Below are positions 43,790 through 53,877 of a DNA stretch of 64,000 nt, piece by piece (the first letter of the stretch is position 1; every line of letters starts with the position of its first letter). This DNA comes from Lentisphaerota bacterium. GTDB lineage: Bacteria > Verrucomicrobiota > Lentisphaeria > Victivallales > Victivallaceae. The notes below the pieces were generated by a model. It was given only the letters and a program-made list of their open reading frames with translations, had not been told where the DNA came from and made no database searches. Where the stretch lies: positions 2,693-66,692 of the forward strand of contig SUWH01000015.1 in NCBI GenBank assembly GCA_015061605.1. Reading direction: 5' to 3'. The translations under genes were made by a program, and so were the position numbers.

Positions 43790-45919
43790 TTAGAGTTTGA
43801 ATTTTACAAATTCTGCCGGAGCCAGTGTCCTGATTTCAGTTTTGCCGCTGTAATGCACTTCCACCTGATGCGGGCGGTCGAAGTCAATATTCAACAGGCA
43901 GACGCTCTTATCTTCCGGGAAAAAGGAACAGCAGGTATATTGCGGGAGTTCGCCGTTTTCTGTCACTTTCACCGTCGGGGTGGTCTGTGACGCAAAATAG
44001 CGGTAAAGCTCGGTTATCATGCCTTCCGGAACGGTCATTGCGCCGGGGCCCTCGTCAATATCCATTTCAGAAGGGAAGTTCCAACAGTTGATGAATATGA
44101 CCTTTCCTTTGCCCAGAGGACGTTCAAGGATGACGGGGTGGCTGCATTCATCTTCTGTGACCAGGGCTTTTACCTTTGGATCGGTGATTTCGATTTCACC
44201 GAGCTTGATGTTGAATATTCCGCGGCGGCGGGAAAGTGCAAAACCGCTGCCGCTCGTATTGGCATTGATCGACCAGTAGACATTGCGCGGGTAGACGGCG
44301 TTGACCTTTACGCCGCACAATTCGGAAATATCACCGTTATTGATCAGATCATCAGGGCAGAGTTCATGGATTTTCCGGTCAATTCCGGTGCAGAGCTGCG
44401 GCAGTCCGATGATCAATGTTCCGCCGTTGCGGACATATTCGATCATCAGCTGATAGTGTTCGGGAACGGCACTGTTCCAGCCGGGGAAGATCATCAGCTG
44501 ATACTGCTTCAATTTTCCCGCATCGGGCAGGGCGCCGGCAAAACTTATGATATCAAAGTTACCGTAGGGGGAGGCGGAGAGGAATTGGTTTTTTTCTCCG
44601 CCCAGCACGTCGGGGAAGGGGGTGAAAATATTCTGTATCATCTCCCACGATCTTTCCGGAACGCCGCAGTAATACTCCGGATTCTCTGCTGCGGCTTCAA
44701 CTGCGCCGCCCAGCGGAACGGCGGTCATGGCGCGCGGGGCGGCAGCAAGATCATATCTGCCTTTGAAAATGGCGATTTTTGCCTCCGGTTGACCGGCGGG
44801 GGCGGGATTTTCTTTCAAAAAGGCGTAGAACTCTTTCAACACTTTGCGGTAGTTCTGCACCACGGGTGAAGAACGTTTGATATTGGCAAGTTTCTCATCC
44901 AGAGTCGGTATGAGGTCTGTGTAGAGTTCCGGAGAGGTTTCGCGGATGCCTCCGGGGGCGATCACCCGGGGAGTGGAAAGCATCGGCGCGTCGGGAGCCA
45001 TCTGTGAACGGGCGGTGCCGTGGCCGCTTTCGTTGATGATCATTTTGGCTCCGTGCATGTATTTGAGGAAGAATGCCGCTTTGAGCAGCGGGAACTTGCG
45101 CGGATTGGCAAAGGATATCCAGGAATAGTGTTCATGGGCGACGTGTGAACCCCAGAATTCCAGATCGTACTGCCGCATCAGACCCCGGCTCAAGGCTGAA
45201 GAGACGGTCAGATTCCGGAAGGCAAAATCTTCACATACCGGCACATCAACTCCAGCCGCGATCTCATAGTCAACATAAAATGAAGCACTGGTGGTAAGGG
45301 TTCTGCCCCAACCGTTGCGGCGGCGGTATTCGACAGCTTCGCGTACTTTCCGGATGAAGGTTTCGGCGATTTCCTGCAAATTTTTCGCTTGGGGGACATT
45401 CATCACATTTCTTTCACCGAAGTTATATCCCATGTAGTTGGGATAAGCGGTCAAATTTTTTGTGTGCTCCAGTACGCCGTCGGAGTAGAGGATGACTGCT
45501 CCGGCGTCGGTCTTTTTTATCTTCTCCAGCAGGGCAGTCATCCACGCACCGTAACGGGTGGATCTGTATTCAGCAAAATCAGGACCGTTGTCAAAGCTCA
45601 GGTTTTTCAGATTCTTCCAGTCCGGCTGCGGTTCGGGGATACCGAGTTCGCCCAACTGATAATTCCGCCACATCGCCAGCGGAGTTTTGGCAAAGTTGCC
45701 GATCGGCAGGACGAAGTTACCGAGTTCCTCTTTTACGAAGTCATCGAATTCCTCATCCATGGTGAAATTCTCCGGCTCCCAGCGGGTATGGATAAGCCCG
45801 GAGCGGGTCAGGTGAAACTTTTGATTGTCATGCAGCGCCGGACCGAACCACATCCCGCAATCAGGAAGTTTGAATTTTAAAGAAGTTTTCTCCATTTTGC
45901 ACTTCTCTTGAGCAATCAT
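43790..45919 (-). CDS. Cytoplasmic hypothetical protein (709 aa) of the glycan locus
   Basis: Long ORF with an ATGA overlap with the upstream gene. No signal peptide and no family recognised. Confidence 0.7.
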
Positions 45920-46563
45920 AATTTTCCCGGGAACCGGTATTCGTAACCTTCACTTCCGGCGTGTACTGAATCCAATGCTGAAATGATGTAATTCTGGATC
46001 GCTCCATCCGGACGGCACCAGTTGGTCGTATTACCATGACTGCGCAGAGATACCCATTTATCGCTTTTTTTGTTGCTCGCTATATCTCCAAACAAATGAA
46101 GCGTATATTTGTCTTTGGGAAAACGCTGAAGCGAACGGTAATCGCCGATCCTGCCAATATGTTTCTGGAAGTAACTGGTTGTTCCTTCTGCCCATGAGAC
46201 ATTGGCTGGACAGTTGAGAAAAGCTCCTTTTTGCAGCGGGTCAATGACCGGGCAATATTTCAATGTCACCAGAAGTCCCAGTCCGGGGCCCAGACCGGTA
46301 CCGTTCCATTTGCTCCAGTCAAAATGTATGGCAGTCGGATAGTTGTTGAGAGAATAGCCCGGCGGCACCCAGCGTTTATTGTCGTTGGAATATTGGTAGA
46401 CTGCCTGATATATTTGTTTTTGGCGGACGATGCAGTTGGCTATTTTGCCGCGTTCTCTGGCGCTCTGCAGTGCCGGAAGCAGTATGGCTGCGAGAATAGC
46501 GATGATGGCAATTACCACAAGCAGTTCGATCAACGTAAATAATTGTTGCTTGAAAAATTTCAT
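45916..46563 (-). CDS. Prepilin-type N-terminal cleavage/methylation-domain, H-X9-DG protein
   Basis: [40 protein letters not shown]; [16 protein letters not shown]. Confidence 0.9.
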
Positions 46564-50809: not shown

Positions 50810-51250
50810 ATGAAAATTGCAGTTACTTGTGAAAATGATCAGGTCTTTCAGCATTTCGGTCATACGCCGGGATTTGCGGTATTTGAAGCTGTTGACGGGA
50901 AAATAACTTCGGAAAAAATGCTTCCCAGCGGTAATTCCGGACACGGCGCGCTCGCCACGCTGCTCGCCTTTGAACAGGTCGAAGTCCTCATTTGCGGCGG
51001 TATCGGCGGCGGCGCGATCAACGCGCTCGGTAATGCCGGGATCAAAGTAATCGGCGGAGCTTCCGGCAATGTCCGGGAAGTCGCTGAAGCTTTTGTCAAC
51101 GGGACGCTTCAAGTCAGAGCCGATTTCCACTGCAACCACCATCACGGTGAACACACTTGCGGCAGTCACTCCCATGAAGATGGGCACACTTGCGGCAGTC
51201 ACTCCCATGAAGATGGGCACACTTGCGGCAGTCACGGCTGCAAACACTGA
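50810..51250 (+). CDS. NifB/NifX-family (dinitrogenase Fe-Mo cofactor domain) protein with His/Cys-rich C-terminal repeat tail
   Basis: MKIAVTCENDQVFQHFGHTPGFAVFE...VLICGGIGGGAINALGNAGIKV is the NifX/NifB-C fold signature. The tail is HCNHHHGEHTCGSHSHEDGHTCGSHSHEDGHTCGSHGCKH. GAGAGGTGA RBS. Confidence 0.85.
   Translation: MKIAVTCENDQVFQHFGHTPGFAVFEAVDGKITSEKMLPSGNSGHGALATLLAFEQVEVLICGGIGGGAINALGNAGIKVIGGASGNVREVAEAFVNGTLQVRADFHCNHHHGEHTCGSHSHEDGHTCGSHSHEDGHTCGSHGCKH
51152..51235 (+). repeat. About 2.5 perfect copies of a 33-bp tandem repeat (encodes HTCGSHSHEDG)
   Basis: CACACTTGCGGCAGTCACTCCCATGAAGATGGG occurs at 51152 and 51185, with a partial third copy from 51218. Confidence 0.9.
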
Positions 51251-51269
51251 AAAATTTTTCAAAGTACCC

Positions 51270-51297
51270 TTGAAAAATCATTTTTTTGCATTATATT
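51270..51297 (+). promoter_or_regulatory. Sigma70-like promoter of the aroF-pheA leader
   Basis: TTGAAA (51270-51275), 16 nt, TATATT (51292-51297). It lies about 30 nt upstream of the leader ORF. Confidence 0.45.
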
Positions 51298-51328
51298 AGA
51301 TGCAAACAACAAAATAAAAGGATTCAAT

Positions 51329-51412
51329 ATGTCTTTGTTTACCGGCAAATTTTTTAACTTTATCAGCTTCTATTATTACTTTAGAGGCGGGGTTTGCCGT
51401 GCAATGATTTGA
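51329..51412 (+). CDS. Candidate Phe/Tyr-rich attenuation leader peptide (27 aa)
   Basis: Too short for the ORF track. AAAGGA lies 6 nt upstream of the ATG at 51329. The ORF reads MSLFTGKFFNFISFYYYFRGGVCRAMI, then TGA at 51410. There are 6 Phe and 3 Tyr in the first 18 codons. Confidence 0.6.
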   Translation: MSLFTGKFFNFISFYYYFRGGVCRAMI

Positions 51413-51437
51413 TGCTTTTGATGATTTTGAACAGCAA

Positions 51438-51476
51438 ACTCCGTAACGAAAATTCACGTTGCGGAGTTTTTTTTTG
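51438..51476 (+). terminator. Intrinsic terminator (attenuator) between the leader ORF and aroF
   Basis: ACTCCGTAACG (51438-51448) pairs with CGTTGCGGAGT (51457-51467): 11 bp including one G-U, 8-nt loop, then a run of 9 T. The terminator ends 37 nt before the aroF ATG. Confidence 0.75.
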
Positions 51477-51512
51477 ACAATAATTTGATTTTTATATAGG
51501 AGTAAAGAAAAA

Positions 51513-52529
51513 ATGGTAATCATCCTGAAAGACAATGCCGATCCCCGGCAGCTCGAGGCCCTCAAAAAATGGGTCGAAACTCAAAATGTCCATGTCCATC
51601 AGAGTCAGGGGTCCCATCAGACCATCCTCGGTCTGGTCGGTGACACTGTCCACATCGATATCGACATGATCAAACAGCTGGAGATCGTCGAAGATGTCCG
51701 CCGCATTCAGGAGCCGTTCAAAAGTGCCAACCGCAAATTTCATCCGCTGGATACGGTGATCGATGTCAACGGCCATTTGGTCGGTGACGGCAATCTCTGC
51801 GTCATTGCCGGTCCGTGTTCCATTGAAAGTGAAACCCAGATCATGACTGTGGCGCGCAGTGTGAAAAAATCCGGAGCCTCCATGCTTCGCGGCGGAGCAT
51901 TCAAACCCCGTACCTCTCCGTACAGCTTTCAGGGAATGCGCGATGAAGGTATCAAACTGCTGCTGCAGGCAGGCAAAGAGACCGGTCTGCCGGTGGTGAC
52001 GGAAGTCATGGATATTTCCCAGCTCAATCTCTTTGCTGAAGTCGATGTGATTCAGGTCGGAGCGCGCAATATGCAGAACTTTGAACTGCTCAAAGAGCTT
52101 GGACATTGCAATAAACCGATTCTGCTCAAGCGCGGCTTGTGCGCCACATTTCAGGAGTTGCTGATGAGTGCCGAGTACATCCTTGCCAACGGCAATGATA
52201 AAGTTATCCTCTGCGAACGCGGCATCCGCACTTTTGAAGACTACACCCGCAACACGCTGGATATTTCCATGATCCCGGCAATGAAAGAGCTTTCACATCT
52301 GCCGGTCATCATCGACCCCAGTCATGCCGCCGGTATGGCGCGATTTGTTGCGCCGCTTTCCCGTGCCGCAGTCGCCGCCGGGACCGACGGTCTGATCATC
52401 GAAGTCCACAACGACCCGGCGCGCGCCCGCTGTGACGGGCCGCAGTCGCTGACGATGGAGGCGTTTGACCATCTGATGAAAGATCTTACCCGCTTCCACG
52501 AGCTGGCAAAAGAGTGCAAAATGAAATAA
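51513..52529 (+). CDS. aroF: 3-deoxy-7-phosphoheptulonate (DAHP) synthase, type I-beta, with N-terminal ferredoxin-like regulatory domain
   Basis: LCVIAGPCSIESETQIM...LRGGAFKPRTSPYSFQG...; about 70-aa N-terminal extension (MVIILKDNADPRQLEALKKWVE...) as in Thermotoga-type enzymes. Confidence 0.9.
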   Translation: MVIILKDNADPRQLEALKKWVETQNVHVHQSQGSHQTILGLVGDTVHIDIDMIKQLEIVEDVRRIQEPFKSANRKFHPLDTVIDVNGHLVGDGNLCVIAGPCSIESETQIMTVARSVKKSGASMLRGGAFKPRTSPYSFQGMRDEGIKLLLQAGKETGLPVVTEVMDISQLNLFAEVDVIQVGARNMQNFELLKELGHCNKPILLKRGLCATFQELLMSAEYILANGNDKVILCERGIRTFEDYTRNTLDISMIPAMKELSHLPVIIDPSHAAGMARFVAPLSRAAVAAGTDGLIIEVHNDPARARCDGPQSLTMEAFDHLMKDLTRFHELAKECKMK

Positions 52530-52565: not shown

Positions 52566-53705
52566 ATGAGTATCGAAAAATGCCGCAATGAGATCGATCG
52601 TATCGACAGTGAAATCCTGGAACTATTCCATCAGCGTATGGGAGTGGTTTCAGAGATCGCCAAATTGAAAAAAGCTTCCCACGCTTCCGTATTGAACCGG
52701 GCGCGGGAACGGGAGATTTTGCACCGGGTTTTCAACAACAGTGAAAACAAGCTCGGCAAATATTCGGTCAACCTTTTCACCACTCTGATGGAGCTTTCCC
52801 GGGCGTATCAGCGTGAACAGAACTCTCCAGACCGCGGAATGCGCGATGAACTGGATGTCATCCGCGCCAACACTCCCGCCCGGTTCCCCGAAAGTGCGGT
52901 TGTCGCCTGCATGGGAATGGAAGGAACCTATGGTCAGATCGCCTGCGACAGACTTTTCAAAGTTGCCAACATCATCTATTTCAAAAACTTTGCCGGAGTA
53001 TGCAAGGCGGTTTCCGACGGTCTGTGCGAATATGGTGTGCTGCCGGTCGACAACACCACCAGCGGTACGGTCGATGGTGTTTATGAACTTATGCAGCAGG
53101 GAAACTTCCACATTGTCCGCAGTATCAATCAGCAGGTTTCAAGCGTTCTGCTTGCACCGCGCGGCGTGAAGCTCAAAGATGTGAAAGAAATTTATTCCCA
53201 TCCCCAGCCATTCAAACAGTGTTCGGAATTTCTCAAAAACCTCGAAGGGGTCAAATTGACTGTGGCGGACAGTACAGCCACTGCCGCCGCTATGGCTGCT
53301 GACAGCGGCAGAAATGATGTGGCGGCGATCGCTTCACGCAACTGCCGTGATCTCTGCAATCTGGAAATCATTTCCGACAACATCCAGAACAGCGACTACA
53401 ACTACACCCGCTTCGTCTGCATTTCCCGCATCCCGCAGATTTTCCCCGGTGCGAACAAGATCAGTTTGATTGCGGTACTTTCCCACCGTCCCGGTGCGCT
53501 GCATTCGGTGCTGTCCAAGTTCTCCGCCCTCGGGCTGAACCTCACCAAACTGGAAAGCCGTCCCATTCCCGGCAGAAAGTTTGAATATATGTTCTACTTC
53601 GATTTTGAAGCTTCGGTCGCCGATCCGGGGATCGCTGAACTTCTGGGCGAACTGCGCAATGAAACCGAGAAATTTGTCTTCCTCGGCAACTATTCCGAAA
53701 TCTGA
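52566..53705 (+). CDS. pheA: Bifunctional chorismate mutase / prephenate dehydratase
   Basis: CM_2 helix bundle (CRNEIDRIDSEILELFHQRM), PDT domain (ACMGMEGTYGQIA..., NYTRFVCIS) and ACT domain (LTKLESRPIPG). Confidence 0.9.
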   Translation: MSIEKCRNEIDRIDSEILELFHQRMGVVSEIAKLKKASHASVLNRAREREILHRVFNNSENKLGKYSVNLFTTLMELSRAYQREQNSPDRGMRDELDVIRANTPARFPESAVVACMGMEGTYGQIACDRLFKVANIIYFKNFAGVCKAVSDGLCEYGVLPVDNTTSGTVDGVYELMQQGNFHIVRSINQQVSSVLLAPRGVKLKDVKEIYSHPQPFKQCSEFLKNLEGVKLTVADSTATAAAMAADSGRNDVAAIASRNCRDLCNLEIISDNIQNSDYNYTRFVCISRIPQIFPGANKISLIAVLSHRPGALHSVLSKFSALGLNLTKLESRPIPGRKFEYMFYFDFEASVADPGIAELLGELRNETEKFVFLGNYSEI

Positions 53706-53724
53706 TCTCCGGAAAACATCGACG

Positions 53725-53757
53725 GCGTTGTCTGCACAAGACAGCGCTGTTTTTTTT
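53725..53757 (+). terminator. Rho-independent terminator after pheA
   Basis: GCGTTGTCT (53725-53733) pairs with AGACAGCGC (53739-53747): 9 bp with one G-U, 5-nt loop, then TGTTTTTTTT. Confidence 0.7.
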
Positions 53758-53877
53758 ATGCAAAAAATCGCTGAAAAATTATTTTTCTGCCTTGAAATGC
53801 CTCTGCCCGGTGCTATATTTTACAGCAAGCAATAAAAACCTTAAATAAAAATTTTTCAAAAAGGCAATTGCAGAAAA

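Follow-up and report, generated by a model that had tools for sequence, protein, structure and literature searches.

A probable Phe/Tyr leader-peptide attenuator of the aroF-pheA operon in Lentisphaeria and its relatives in gut Clostridia

Introduction

Ribosome-mediated attenuation is a textbook mechanism that has been documented mostly in Proteobacteria and Actinobacteria, while in gut Clostridia T-boxes are usually assumed to provide control. Here we analyse a stretch of 64,000 nucleotides from a Lentisphaerota bacterium (contig SUWH01000015.1, positions 2,693 to 66,692; hereafter the window, with coordinates counted from its first letter), in which a short Phe- and Tyr-rich open reading frame (ORF) precedes aroF, encoding a 3-deoxy-D-arabino-heptulosonate 7-phosphate (DAHP) synthase, and pheA, encoding a chorismate mutase/prephenate dehydratase. 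A first-pass annotation, made from the letters of the window, had proposed ribosome-mediated attenuation for this leader and had regarded a clean case in a genome of the Planctomycetes-Verrucomicrobia-Chlamydiae (PVC) type as notable. By analogy with the dynamics of trpL and pheL, the leader very probably is a classical ribosome-mediated (leader-peptide) transcription attenuator of a bicistronic aroF-pheA operon.

The mechanism of the Escherichia coli pheL-pheA and pheST leaders has been summarised elsewhere (PMC11802643, PMC3082878). They share with the window leader a short ORF packed with Phe codons, competing 1:2, 2:3 and 3:4 hairpins and an intrinsic terminator, and pheL-pheA controls a chorismate mutase/prephenate dehydratase gene. 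Unlike pheL, the window leader mixes Phe and Tyr codons, has a DAHP synthase gene as its first gene and belongs to a member of the Lentisphaeria rather than to a γ-proteobacterium. Nor is homology of sequence or structure detectable between the two; membership of the Rfam family Phe_leader (RF01859) was considered and rejected, the match scoring 14.6 bits (E = 8.3) against a gathering threshold of 55. The E. coli trpL leader is similar in having control codons at or near region 1, a region 2 that enters two helices and a 3:4 terminator. However, trpL senses Trp, and region 2 of the window leader lies inside the ORF, 13-24 nt before the stop codon, and not just after it.

The closest functional precedent is the aroR leader of Corynebacterium glutamicum, located 5' of aroF, in which a Phe/Tyr leader peptide with F-Y-F codons attenuates a DAHP synthase operon and for which a response to Phe limitation was reported (Neshat et al. 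2014, as cited in PMC11802643 and PMC4046766). Compared by description, aroR differs in its phylum, Actinobacteria, and in having three control codons where the window leader has nine, and its enzyme is not stated to be of the type with a ferredoxin-like (FXD) domain. Also comparable by description only is uORFC-13-1, a predicted and unvalidated group of 24 representatives from Acholeplasma and environmental sequences with 'at least one phenylalanine' (Brewer et al. 2021, PMC8632094); like the window leader it is an upstream ORF with Phe codons beside an intrinsic terminator, and it is found exclusively 5' of aroF. In Firmicutes, the usual tRNA-sensing attenuators of aromatic amino-acid genes are T-box leaders (PMC2494555). 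Their outcome is alike, an antiterminator at low charged tRNA, whereas the window leader would, by analogy with trpL and pheL, sense through translation of its mini-ORF, and neither the window nor the related Clostridial loci gave a T-box match. A leader peptide in Firmicutes was still notable in 2010 (Naville and Gautheret, PMC2965389). The sole PVC candidate that we found in the literature is an atypical, unvalidated TrpL of Chlamydia, judged a poor attenuator by its latest analysts (PMC7755916).

With Rfam 15 at the gathering threshold, no family was found in the 64-kb window or in 18 related loci, and this holds for T-boxes and riboswitches in particular. At E ≤ 10, positions 51200-51560 gave chance-level matches only, with the T-box (RF00230) not among them. 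A literature search, limited in coverage and no proof of novelty, returned no description of this leader in Clostridia or PVC bacteria. What is new is the phylum and an uncatalogued family; the kind of regulator is thoroughly known.

Results

Leader anatomy

On the forward strand, a σ70-type promoter with a TTGAAA -35 box, a 16-nt spacer and a TATATT -10 box (51270-51297) was recovered by a consensus scan with 10 of 12 matches, at the place where the first-pass annotation had put it. Transcription probably starts near 51304, about 7 nt downstream of the -10 box. The Shine-Dalgarno-like sequence AAAGGA (51317-51322) lies 6 nt 5' of the leader ATG at 51329, which opens an ORF of 27 codons, MSLFTGKFFNFISFYYYFRGGVCRAMI, spanning 51329-51412 and ending in the TGA at 51410-51412; both elements were found as the annotation had described them. 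Its count of control codons can likewise be read directly in the ORF: six Phe and three Tyr codons fall within codons 4-18 (51338-51382), with Phe at F4, F8, F9, F11, F14 and F18 of MSLFTGKFFNFISFYYYFRGGVCRAMI and Tyr at Y15-17, so that codons 14-18 read F-Y-Y-Y-F. On both strands of the window this is the sole mini-ORF with at least six aromatic residues in eight. A second attenuator was sought across the window as an amino-acid-rich leader ORF; matches fell solely within coding regions and none was credible.

The spacer that forms the antiterminator loop contains an imperfect 9-nt repeat, ATGATTTTG, in 3.1 copies (51404-51430). This spacer is without conservation in the relatives described below, and the ATGATTTTG repeat is probably of no consequence.

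Competing helices

Four segments of the leader RNA can form three competing hairpins. Region 1 (51343-51349, CGGCAAA) was identified in the minimum free energy (MFE) fold and can be extended through a U-run to 51353, over the codons for F8 and F9. Region 2 (51388-51399, CGGGGTTTGCCG) covers codons 20-24; its positions 51393-51399 pair with region 1 and its positions 51388-51397 with region 3. Region 3 (51434-51443, GCAAACTCCG) pairs with region 2 in a 10-bp antiterminator core, and 8 nt of region 3 fall within the 5' arm of the terminator. The intrinsic terminator (3:4, 51436-51475) has a stem of 51436-51448 with 51457-51469, an 8-nt loop and a T9 run at 51467-51475. By the consensus scan, 6 of the 13 pairs in this stem (51436-51469) are G-C. 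The first-pass annotation was right about a stem followed by nine T and about its overlap with region 3, but it had given the stem 11 bp instead of 13 bp from 51436 and had ended the T-run at 51476 instead of 51475. The antiterminator that it had proposed was verified: CGGGGTTTGC (51388-51397) pairs with GCAAACTCCG (51434-51443) by nine Watson-Crick pairs and one G-U pair.

The MFE fold adds a helix that the annotation lacked, in which CGGCAAA (51343-51349) pairs with TTTGCCG (51393-51399). Given this 1:2 helix, region 2 is common to 1:2 and to the 2:3 antiterminator, as region 3 is common to 2:3 and to the 3:4 terminator, and in these folding models the layout is one of four segments, as in trp-type attenuators. 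Folding of 51300-51480, the check that had been suggested for this locus, thus returned mutually exclusive structures, with the extra helix raising the number of competing hairpins to three. The 181-nt leader has an MFE of -47.9 kcal/mol (z = -3.7; 0 of 200 shuffles as stable), and its fold holds the terminator together with the 1:2 helix. Taken in isolation, the mutually exclusive hairpins are nearly isoenergetic, at -18.0 (1:2), -20.1 (2:3) and -18.9 kcal/mol (3:4). Pairing between the segment after the aromatic codons and the terminator 5' arm of this leader amounts to -20.7 kcal/mol (z = -3.4). Free nascent RNA with its 3' end at 51444-51456 adopts 1:2, and a 28-nt ribosome footprint, set so that Tyr15 occupies the A site, shifts the same nascent RNA to 2:3.

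Conservation and covariation in Lentisphaeria

The AroF proteins closest to that of the window (69-100% identity) come from gut and rumen metagenomes and, where named, from Lentisphaeria, and the best genome matches are metagenome-assembled genomes of Victivallaceae and Victivallales. Exact-protein look-ups provided 13 distinct Lentisphaeria loci with 71-92% AroF identity, to which a genome scan added L001 (74%) and L003 (70%). In every relative locus, a gap of about 300 nt precedes aroF and pheA follows it, the aroF-pheA pair being kept in the 13 Lentisphaeria loci, and no two have the same upstream neighbours. Without exception the gap contains a promoter of the TTGACA, about 17 nt, TATATT type, an F/Y-rich mini-ORF (for example MSLFFGSFFNFFSFYYYFRSGACRAMI, MTNYYGKFFYLFSFFYFRGGACRADF and MNLNSFSFRFYFYFDFAFYFTKRS) and a terminator with a U-run about 40 nt 5' of aroF. 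In 12 relatives with differing upstream genes, a promoter is kept at the same place (TTGACA or TTGAAA, about 17 nt, TATATT or TATTTT), and most relatives have AAGGA or AGGA 5' of the leader ATG. The sequence of the leader peptide drifts among these relatives, with 5-12 aromatic codons retained.

An alignment of ten sequences from the window's lineage was used to examine the frame and the helices. Within the ORF part, indels are of 3, 6 or 9 nt only, and the spacer after the stop codon varies freely. The 2:3 antiterminator is paired in 98% of cells, as compared to 22-49% in controls with the 3' partner slid by 1-3 columns, and 3 of its 10 pairs change on both sides: the pair at columns 89/150 is CG in seven sequences and UA in three, and each of the next two is UA in nine and CG in one. 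Pairing reaches 99% in the terminator and 90% in the 1:2 helix, where three pairs show double changes. Position 51393, a T or a C, covaries with its region-3 partner in all ten sequences, the register reading TTTGC/GCAAA in the window, CTTGC/GCAAG in L165 and CCCG/CGGG in L169. The region-1 partner of the same position co-changes solely in L165 (CGGCAAA to CGGCAAG); the corresponding 1:2 pair, at columns 39/89, is unpaired in 6 of the 10 sequences and is lost in the C-bearing sequences other than L165. The alignment of related aroF upstream regions that had been proposed as a check on the first-pass annotation thus returned a conserved F/Y mini-ORF and covarying stems.

Two Lentisphaerae loci with AroF about 70% identical to that of the window, L009 and L081, are without the leader ORF and without the terminator, jointly, which suggests that the attenuator was lost or that control is of another kind. 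They share a different upstream region, rich in G+C, TTGAAATATCG...GTGCTATTTTATCTACGGATATTTAT (L009 about 350-680, L081 about 270-608). In two further Lentisphaeria loci, L175 (1-4011) and L176, with 74% AroF identity, a second DAHP synthase of 342 amino acids and without the FXD domain is encoded directly 3' of trpA, and the order continues with an F/Y leader, FXD-type aroF, pheA and aroB. This arrangement suggests a partition of isoenzymes between a DAHP synthase linked to trp and one attenuated by Phe/Tyr.

A wider leader family in gut Clostridia

Gut Clostridia with 60-70% identity (Oscillospiraceae, Acutalibacteraceae, Lachnospiraceae, Christensenellaceae and others) make up most of the best 80 genome matches to the window AroF, 78 of which have at least 300 nt of upstream sequence. 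Of these 78 loci, 60 have a mini-ORF in which five or more of eight residues are F, Y or W, where the reverse strand gives 7 and dinucleotide-shuffled sequence 6.75; with at least six in eight, the counts are 45, 1 and 0.7. The enrichment over controls is thus about 9-fold and about 60-fold, respectively. A typical peptide of the family reads MKxxxFAAEYFYFSFxxFFGKAY..., and between the mini-ORF and aroF, 56 of the 60 loci have a strong terminator with a U-tract behind a G+C-rich stem. In this family, pairing of the segment after the aromatic codons with the terminator 5' arm of the same locus has a mean energy of -17.2 kcal/mol, whereas permuted partners give -12.5 ± 0.4 kcal/mol, and 0 of 200 permutations were as low. 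The same mini-ORF was found in another 40 of 67 metagenome loci. The metagenome scan with AroF, in which the best identity among the matches listed was 70%, added Clostridia-type loci only.

A covariance model was built from 49 Clostridial leaders, with no Lentisphaeria among them and with just six terminator pairs as its structure. In the window it gives a single match at E ≤ 1, on the forward strand at 51352-51475 (44.6 bits, E about 2.8e-5), with E-values that are rough owing to a shortened calibration. It also matches 12 other Lentisphaeria leaders at E < 0.05, and a search of the leaderless L009 and L081 gave no match. The model further recovers 22 independent metagenome leaders, all immediately 5' of aroF. 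In these, the 2:3 helix, which lies outside the structure of the model, is 86% paired, as compared to 28-51% when slid, with 13 compensatory cells, and the terminator is 96% paired with 26 compensatory cells. Judged from these sequences, the window leader belongs to a family that is commonest in gut Clostridia and is not a PVC invention.

The Clostridial members have features of their own. Their region 2, with the consensus GUUUUGCUGC, pairs with the inner 5' arm of the terminator and its loop, GCAGUGAAAU (for example L015 2857-2982 and L084 2348-2478), which explains the conserved GAAA/UAAA-type terminator loops. In several of them the leader stop codon lies 20-40 nt 5' of region 2, a geometry unlike that of the window.

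Phylogeny and the Tyr/Phe codon ratio

In a midpoint-rooted neighbour-joining tree of AroF, calculated without support values, the window's Lentisphaeria clade is monophyletic and nested among Clostridial sequences, and L018, from a member of the Victivallales, stands apart from it beside a Ruminococcus sequence. As the window leader is found by a model built on Clostridia and the AroF clade is nested in Clostridia, transfer of the leader together with aroF between phyla would be more likely than independent evolution, an indication that is suggestive only.

The gene behind aroF is tyrA or aroB, and not pheA, in Clostridia and in L018. The median Tyr fraction of the leader, Y/(F+Y), is 0.48 for aroF-tyrA (62 distinct leaders), 0.33 for aroF-pheA (13) and 0.25 for aroF-aroB (13); Mann-Whitney tests gave p = 1e-4 and 7e-6, values that ignore phylogeny, with the pheA group being a single clade. 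The leader of L018 (2759-2956), which precedes aroF-tyrA, is Tyr-dominated (MNRNYWRYLYTYSYRFYF...), the segment MNRNYWRYLYTYSYRFYFRTGSGIAVS having six Tyr, two Phe and one Trp. Its antiterminator uses a different register, GGTATCGCTG with CAGCGATACC, and the model built on Clostridia did not match the L018 leader. The Tyr fractions and the L018 leader are compatible with transfer of a cassette followed by retuning, without being proof of it.

The aroF-pheA operon

The first gene behind the leader, aroF (51513-52529, forward strand), encodes a DAHP synthase of type I-beta with an N-terminal FXD domain (Pfam DAHP_synth_1, 9.7e-79; DAHP_snth_FXD, 2.6e-20). Its ribosome-binding site, AGGAG at 51498-51502, lies outside every helix of the leader, and 38 nt separate the terminator from its ATG. 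Following aroF by 36 nt on the same strand, pheA (52566-53705) encodes a P-protein with Pfam CM_2 and PDT domains; an ACT domain scores just under the Pfam cut-off. Pfam hence agrees with the functions that the first-pass annotation had given to both genes, and the extra N-terminal domain that it had noted on the DAHP synthase is present as DAHP_snth_FXD. The products of these genes serve to make the amino acids whose codons crowd the leader. A forward-strand terminator at 53721-53751, or 53721-53761 at its widest, closes the operon and a fresh promoter-like site follows at 53792-53819, bounding a unit of two genes.

Discussion

The leader of aroF-pheA brings together the sequence features of an attenuator of this class: a leader ORF with a ribosome-binding site, enrichment in Phe and Tyr codons, a terminator, an antiterminator and a 1:2 helix. 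The architecture that the first-pass annotation had named is thus present and conserved, its helices covary in relatives, and aromatic mini-ORFs are enriched about 9- to 60-fold in the wider family. By analogy with the E. coli leaders, transcription would begin near 51304, and a ribosome would load at the AAAGGA and the ATG at 51329 and translate the observed ORF into the 27-codon peptide. With ample Phe-tRNA and Tyr-tRNA, the ribosome would cover codons 20-24, and with them region 2, during synthesis of regions 3 and 4 by polymerase; once the ribosome has been released, region 1 would capture region 2. In either case region 3 would be free to form 3:4, and the 13-bp hairpin with its U9 run would end the leader RNA at about 170 nt. 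Under a shortage of charged tRNA-Phe or tRNA-Tyr, the ribosome would stall in the F/Y tract (codons 8-18), on or beside region 1. With region 1 blocked, region 2 would pair with the emerging region 3 (-20.1 kcal/mol), as the fold of nascent RNA supports, and this helix would sequester the 5' arm of the terminator so that polymerase could enter aroF-pheA. Read-through would accordingly be expected to respond to the supply of Phe and Tyr. From their domain content, the enzymes may be subject to feedback as well, AroF through its FXD domain and PheA likewise through its sub-cut-off ACT domain, and an allosteric function of FXD is plausible as the second regulatory layer that the annotation had foreseen.

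Several observations weigh against this interpretation. The densest run of control codons, F14-Y15-Y16-Y17-F18 (51368-51382), lies between regions 1 and 2, outside region 1; only F8 and F9 are in or beside region 1, and the YYY run is downstream of it. A ribosome stalled at F18 would extend to about 51392 and come into contact with the 5' end of region 2. Given a footprint at F14-F18, the full-length RNA stays at equilibrium in 1:2 plus the terminator, and equilibrium folding is, as a model, unable to choose between 2:3 and 3:4. The folding algorithm permits 1:2 to close around the masked stretch of the ribosome, so the result with the F14-F18 footprint is not taken against the attenuation model, and folds of nascent transcripts are more informative. 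With the full-length equilibrium fold remaining 1:2 plus terminator, read-through hinges on kinetics and sterics. L166 and L167 have a weak Shine-Dalgarno sequence or none. The ORF varies without third-position bias, 16, 17 and 18 of 27 columns varying at positions 1, 2 and 3 in the ten-sequence alignment. On these counts, third-position bias was dropped as an argument for translation, which is therefore backed by frame and composition and not by purifying selection. The rough E-values of the Clostridial model belong on this side also.

The drift of the peptide and the missing codon bias could be expected if the switch were real and set by a trans-acting factor (an RNA-binding protein, for example, or an uncharged tRNA or metabolite), the mini-ORF being incidental; the alternative helices alone are silent on what flips them. 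Against such a factor stand the Rfam searches, with no T-box or riboswitch at gathering in the window or the 18 loci and none at E ≤ 10 in 51200-51560, and the leaders contain neither a conserved structured aptamer 5' of region 2 nor repeated protein-binding triplets. An F/Y-rich open frame with in-frame indels is, moreover, conserved across about 100 loci in two phyla, about 9- to 60-fold over controls. We consider a trans-acting factor very unlikely. The same small chance is given to a leader that acts mainly on the translation of aroF or on mRNA stability and not through premature termination. The terminator is just 38 nt from the aroF ATG, and some leader peptides, such as those of the erm type, do control translation; yet a U9 run stands behind 3:4, the ribosome-binding site of aroF (51498-51502) is outside all helices, and the canonical G+C-rich stem with a U-tract recurs in 56 of 60 family members. 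Slimmer still is the chance that the mini-ORF stands by itself as a small gene, with a terminator of its own, for a hydrophobic aromatic peptide, which the peptide's hydrophobicity would allow, or that the hairpin is the terminator of the upstream Nitro_FeMo-Co-family gene, which has no other between its stop codon at 51250 and the leader promoter, since the leader accompanies aroF in relatives whose upstream genes all differ, composition is conserved rather than sequence, region 2 is complementary to the terminator arm of its own locus, and L009 and L081 are without ORF and terminator together.

Ribosome-mediated attenuation thus remains the reading that we prefer for this leader. As an example in PVC bacteria, the case stood in one part: the window has a clean attenuator architecture in Lentisphaeria. 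It did not stand as something specific to PVC, the family being commonest in gut Clostridia. A tentative scenario is that a leader-aroF cassette may have passed from gut Clostridia to Victivallales-type Lentisphaeria at least twice, once to the window clade and once to L018, and was possibly retuned so that its Tyr:Phe ratio tracks the gene behind aroF; the window would then hold the first clear classical attenuator in PVC bacteria. If true, branch-specific sensing would have an evolvable 'dial' in the codons that make up a leader peptide, and the locus would be a possible example of a gene and its attenuator transferred jointly between phyla. Besides a clean four-segment Phe/Tyr attenuator in Lentisphaeria, the case indicates that in gut Clostridia most operons for FXD-type DAHP synthases would be under a leader of the same type. 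Annotators would gain a new cis-regulatory family, and experimenters a compact switch supported by covariation.

Two features elsewhere in the window may be mentioned. The upstream gene, of the Nitro_FeMo-Co family (NifX-like, 50810-51250), has at its 3' end a perfect 33-nt tandem repeat in 2.5 copies with 100% identity (51152-51235). The tail that this repeat encodes is rich in His and Cys, with HTCGSHSHEDG as its recurring unit, and may be an extension that binds metal; the full identity of the repeat copies suggests recent expansion. On the reverse strand, 45916-46563 encodes a protein with a prepilin-type N-terminal methylation motif; such proteins are abundant in PVC genomes, and its presence fits the PVC assignment of the window.

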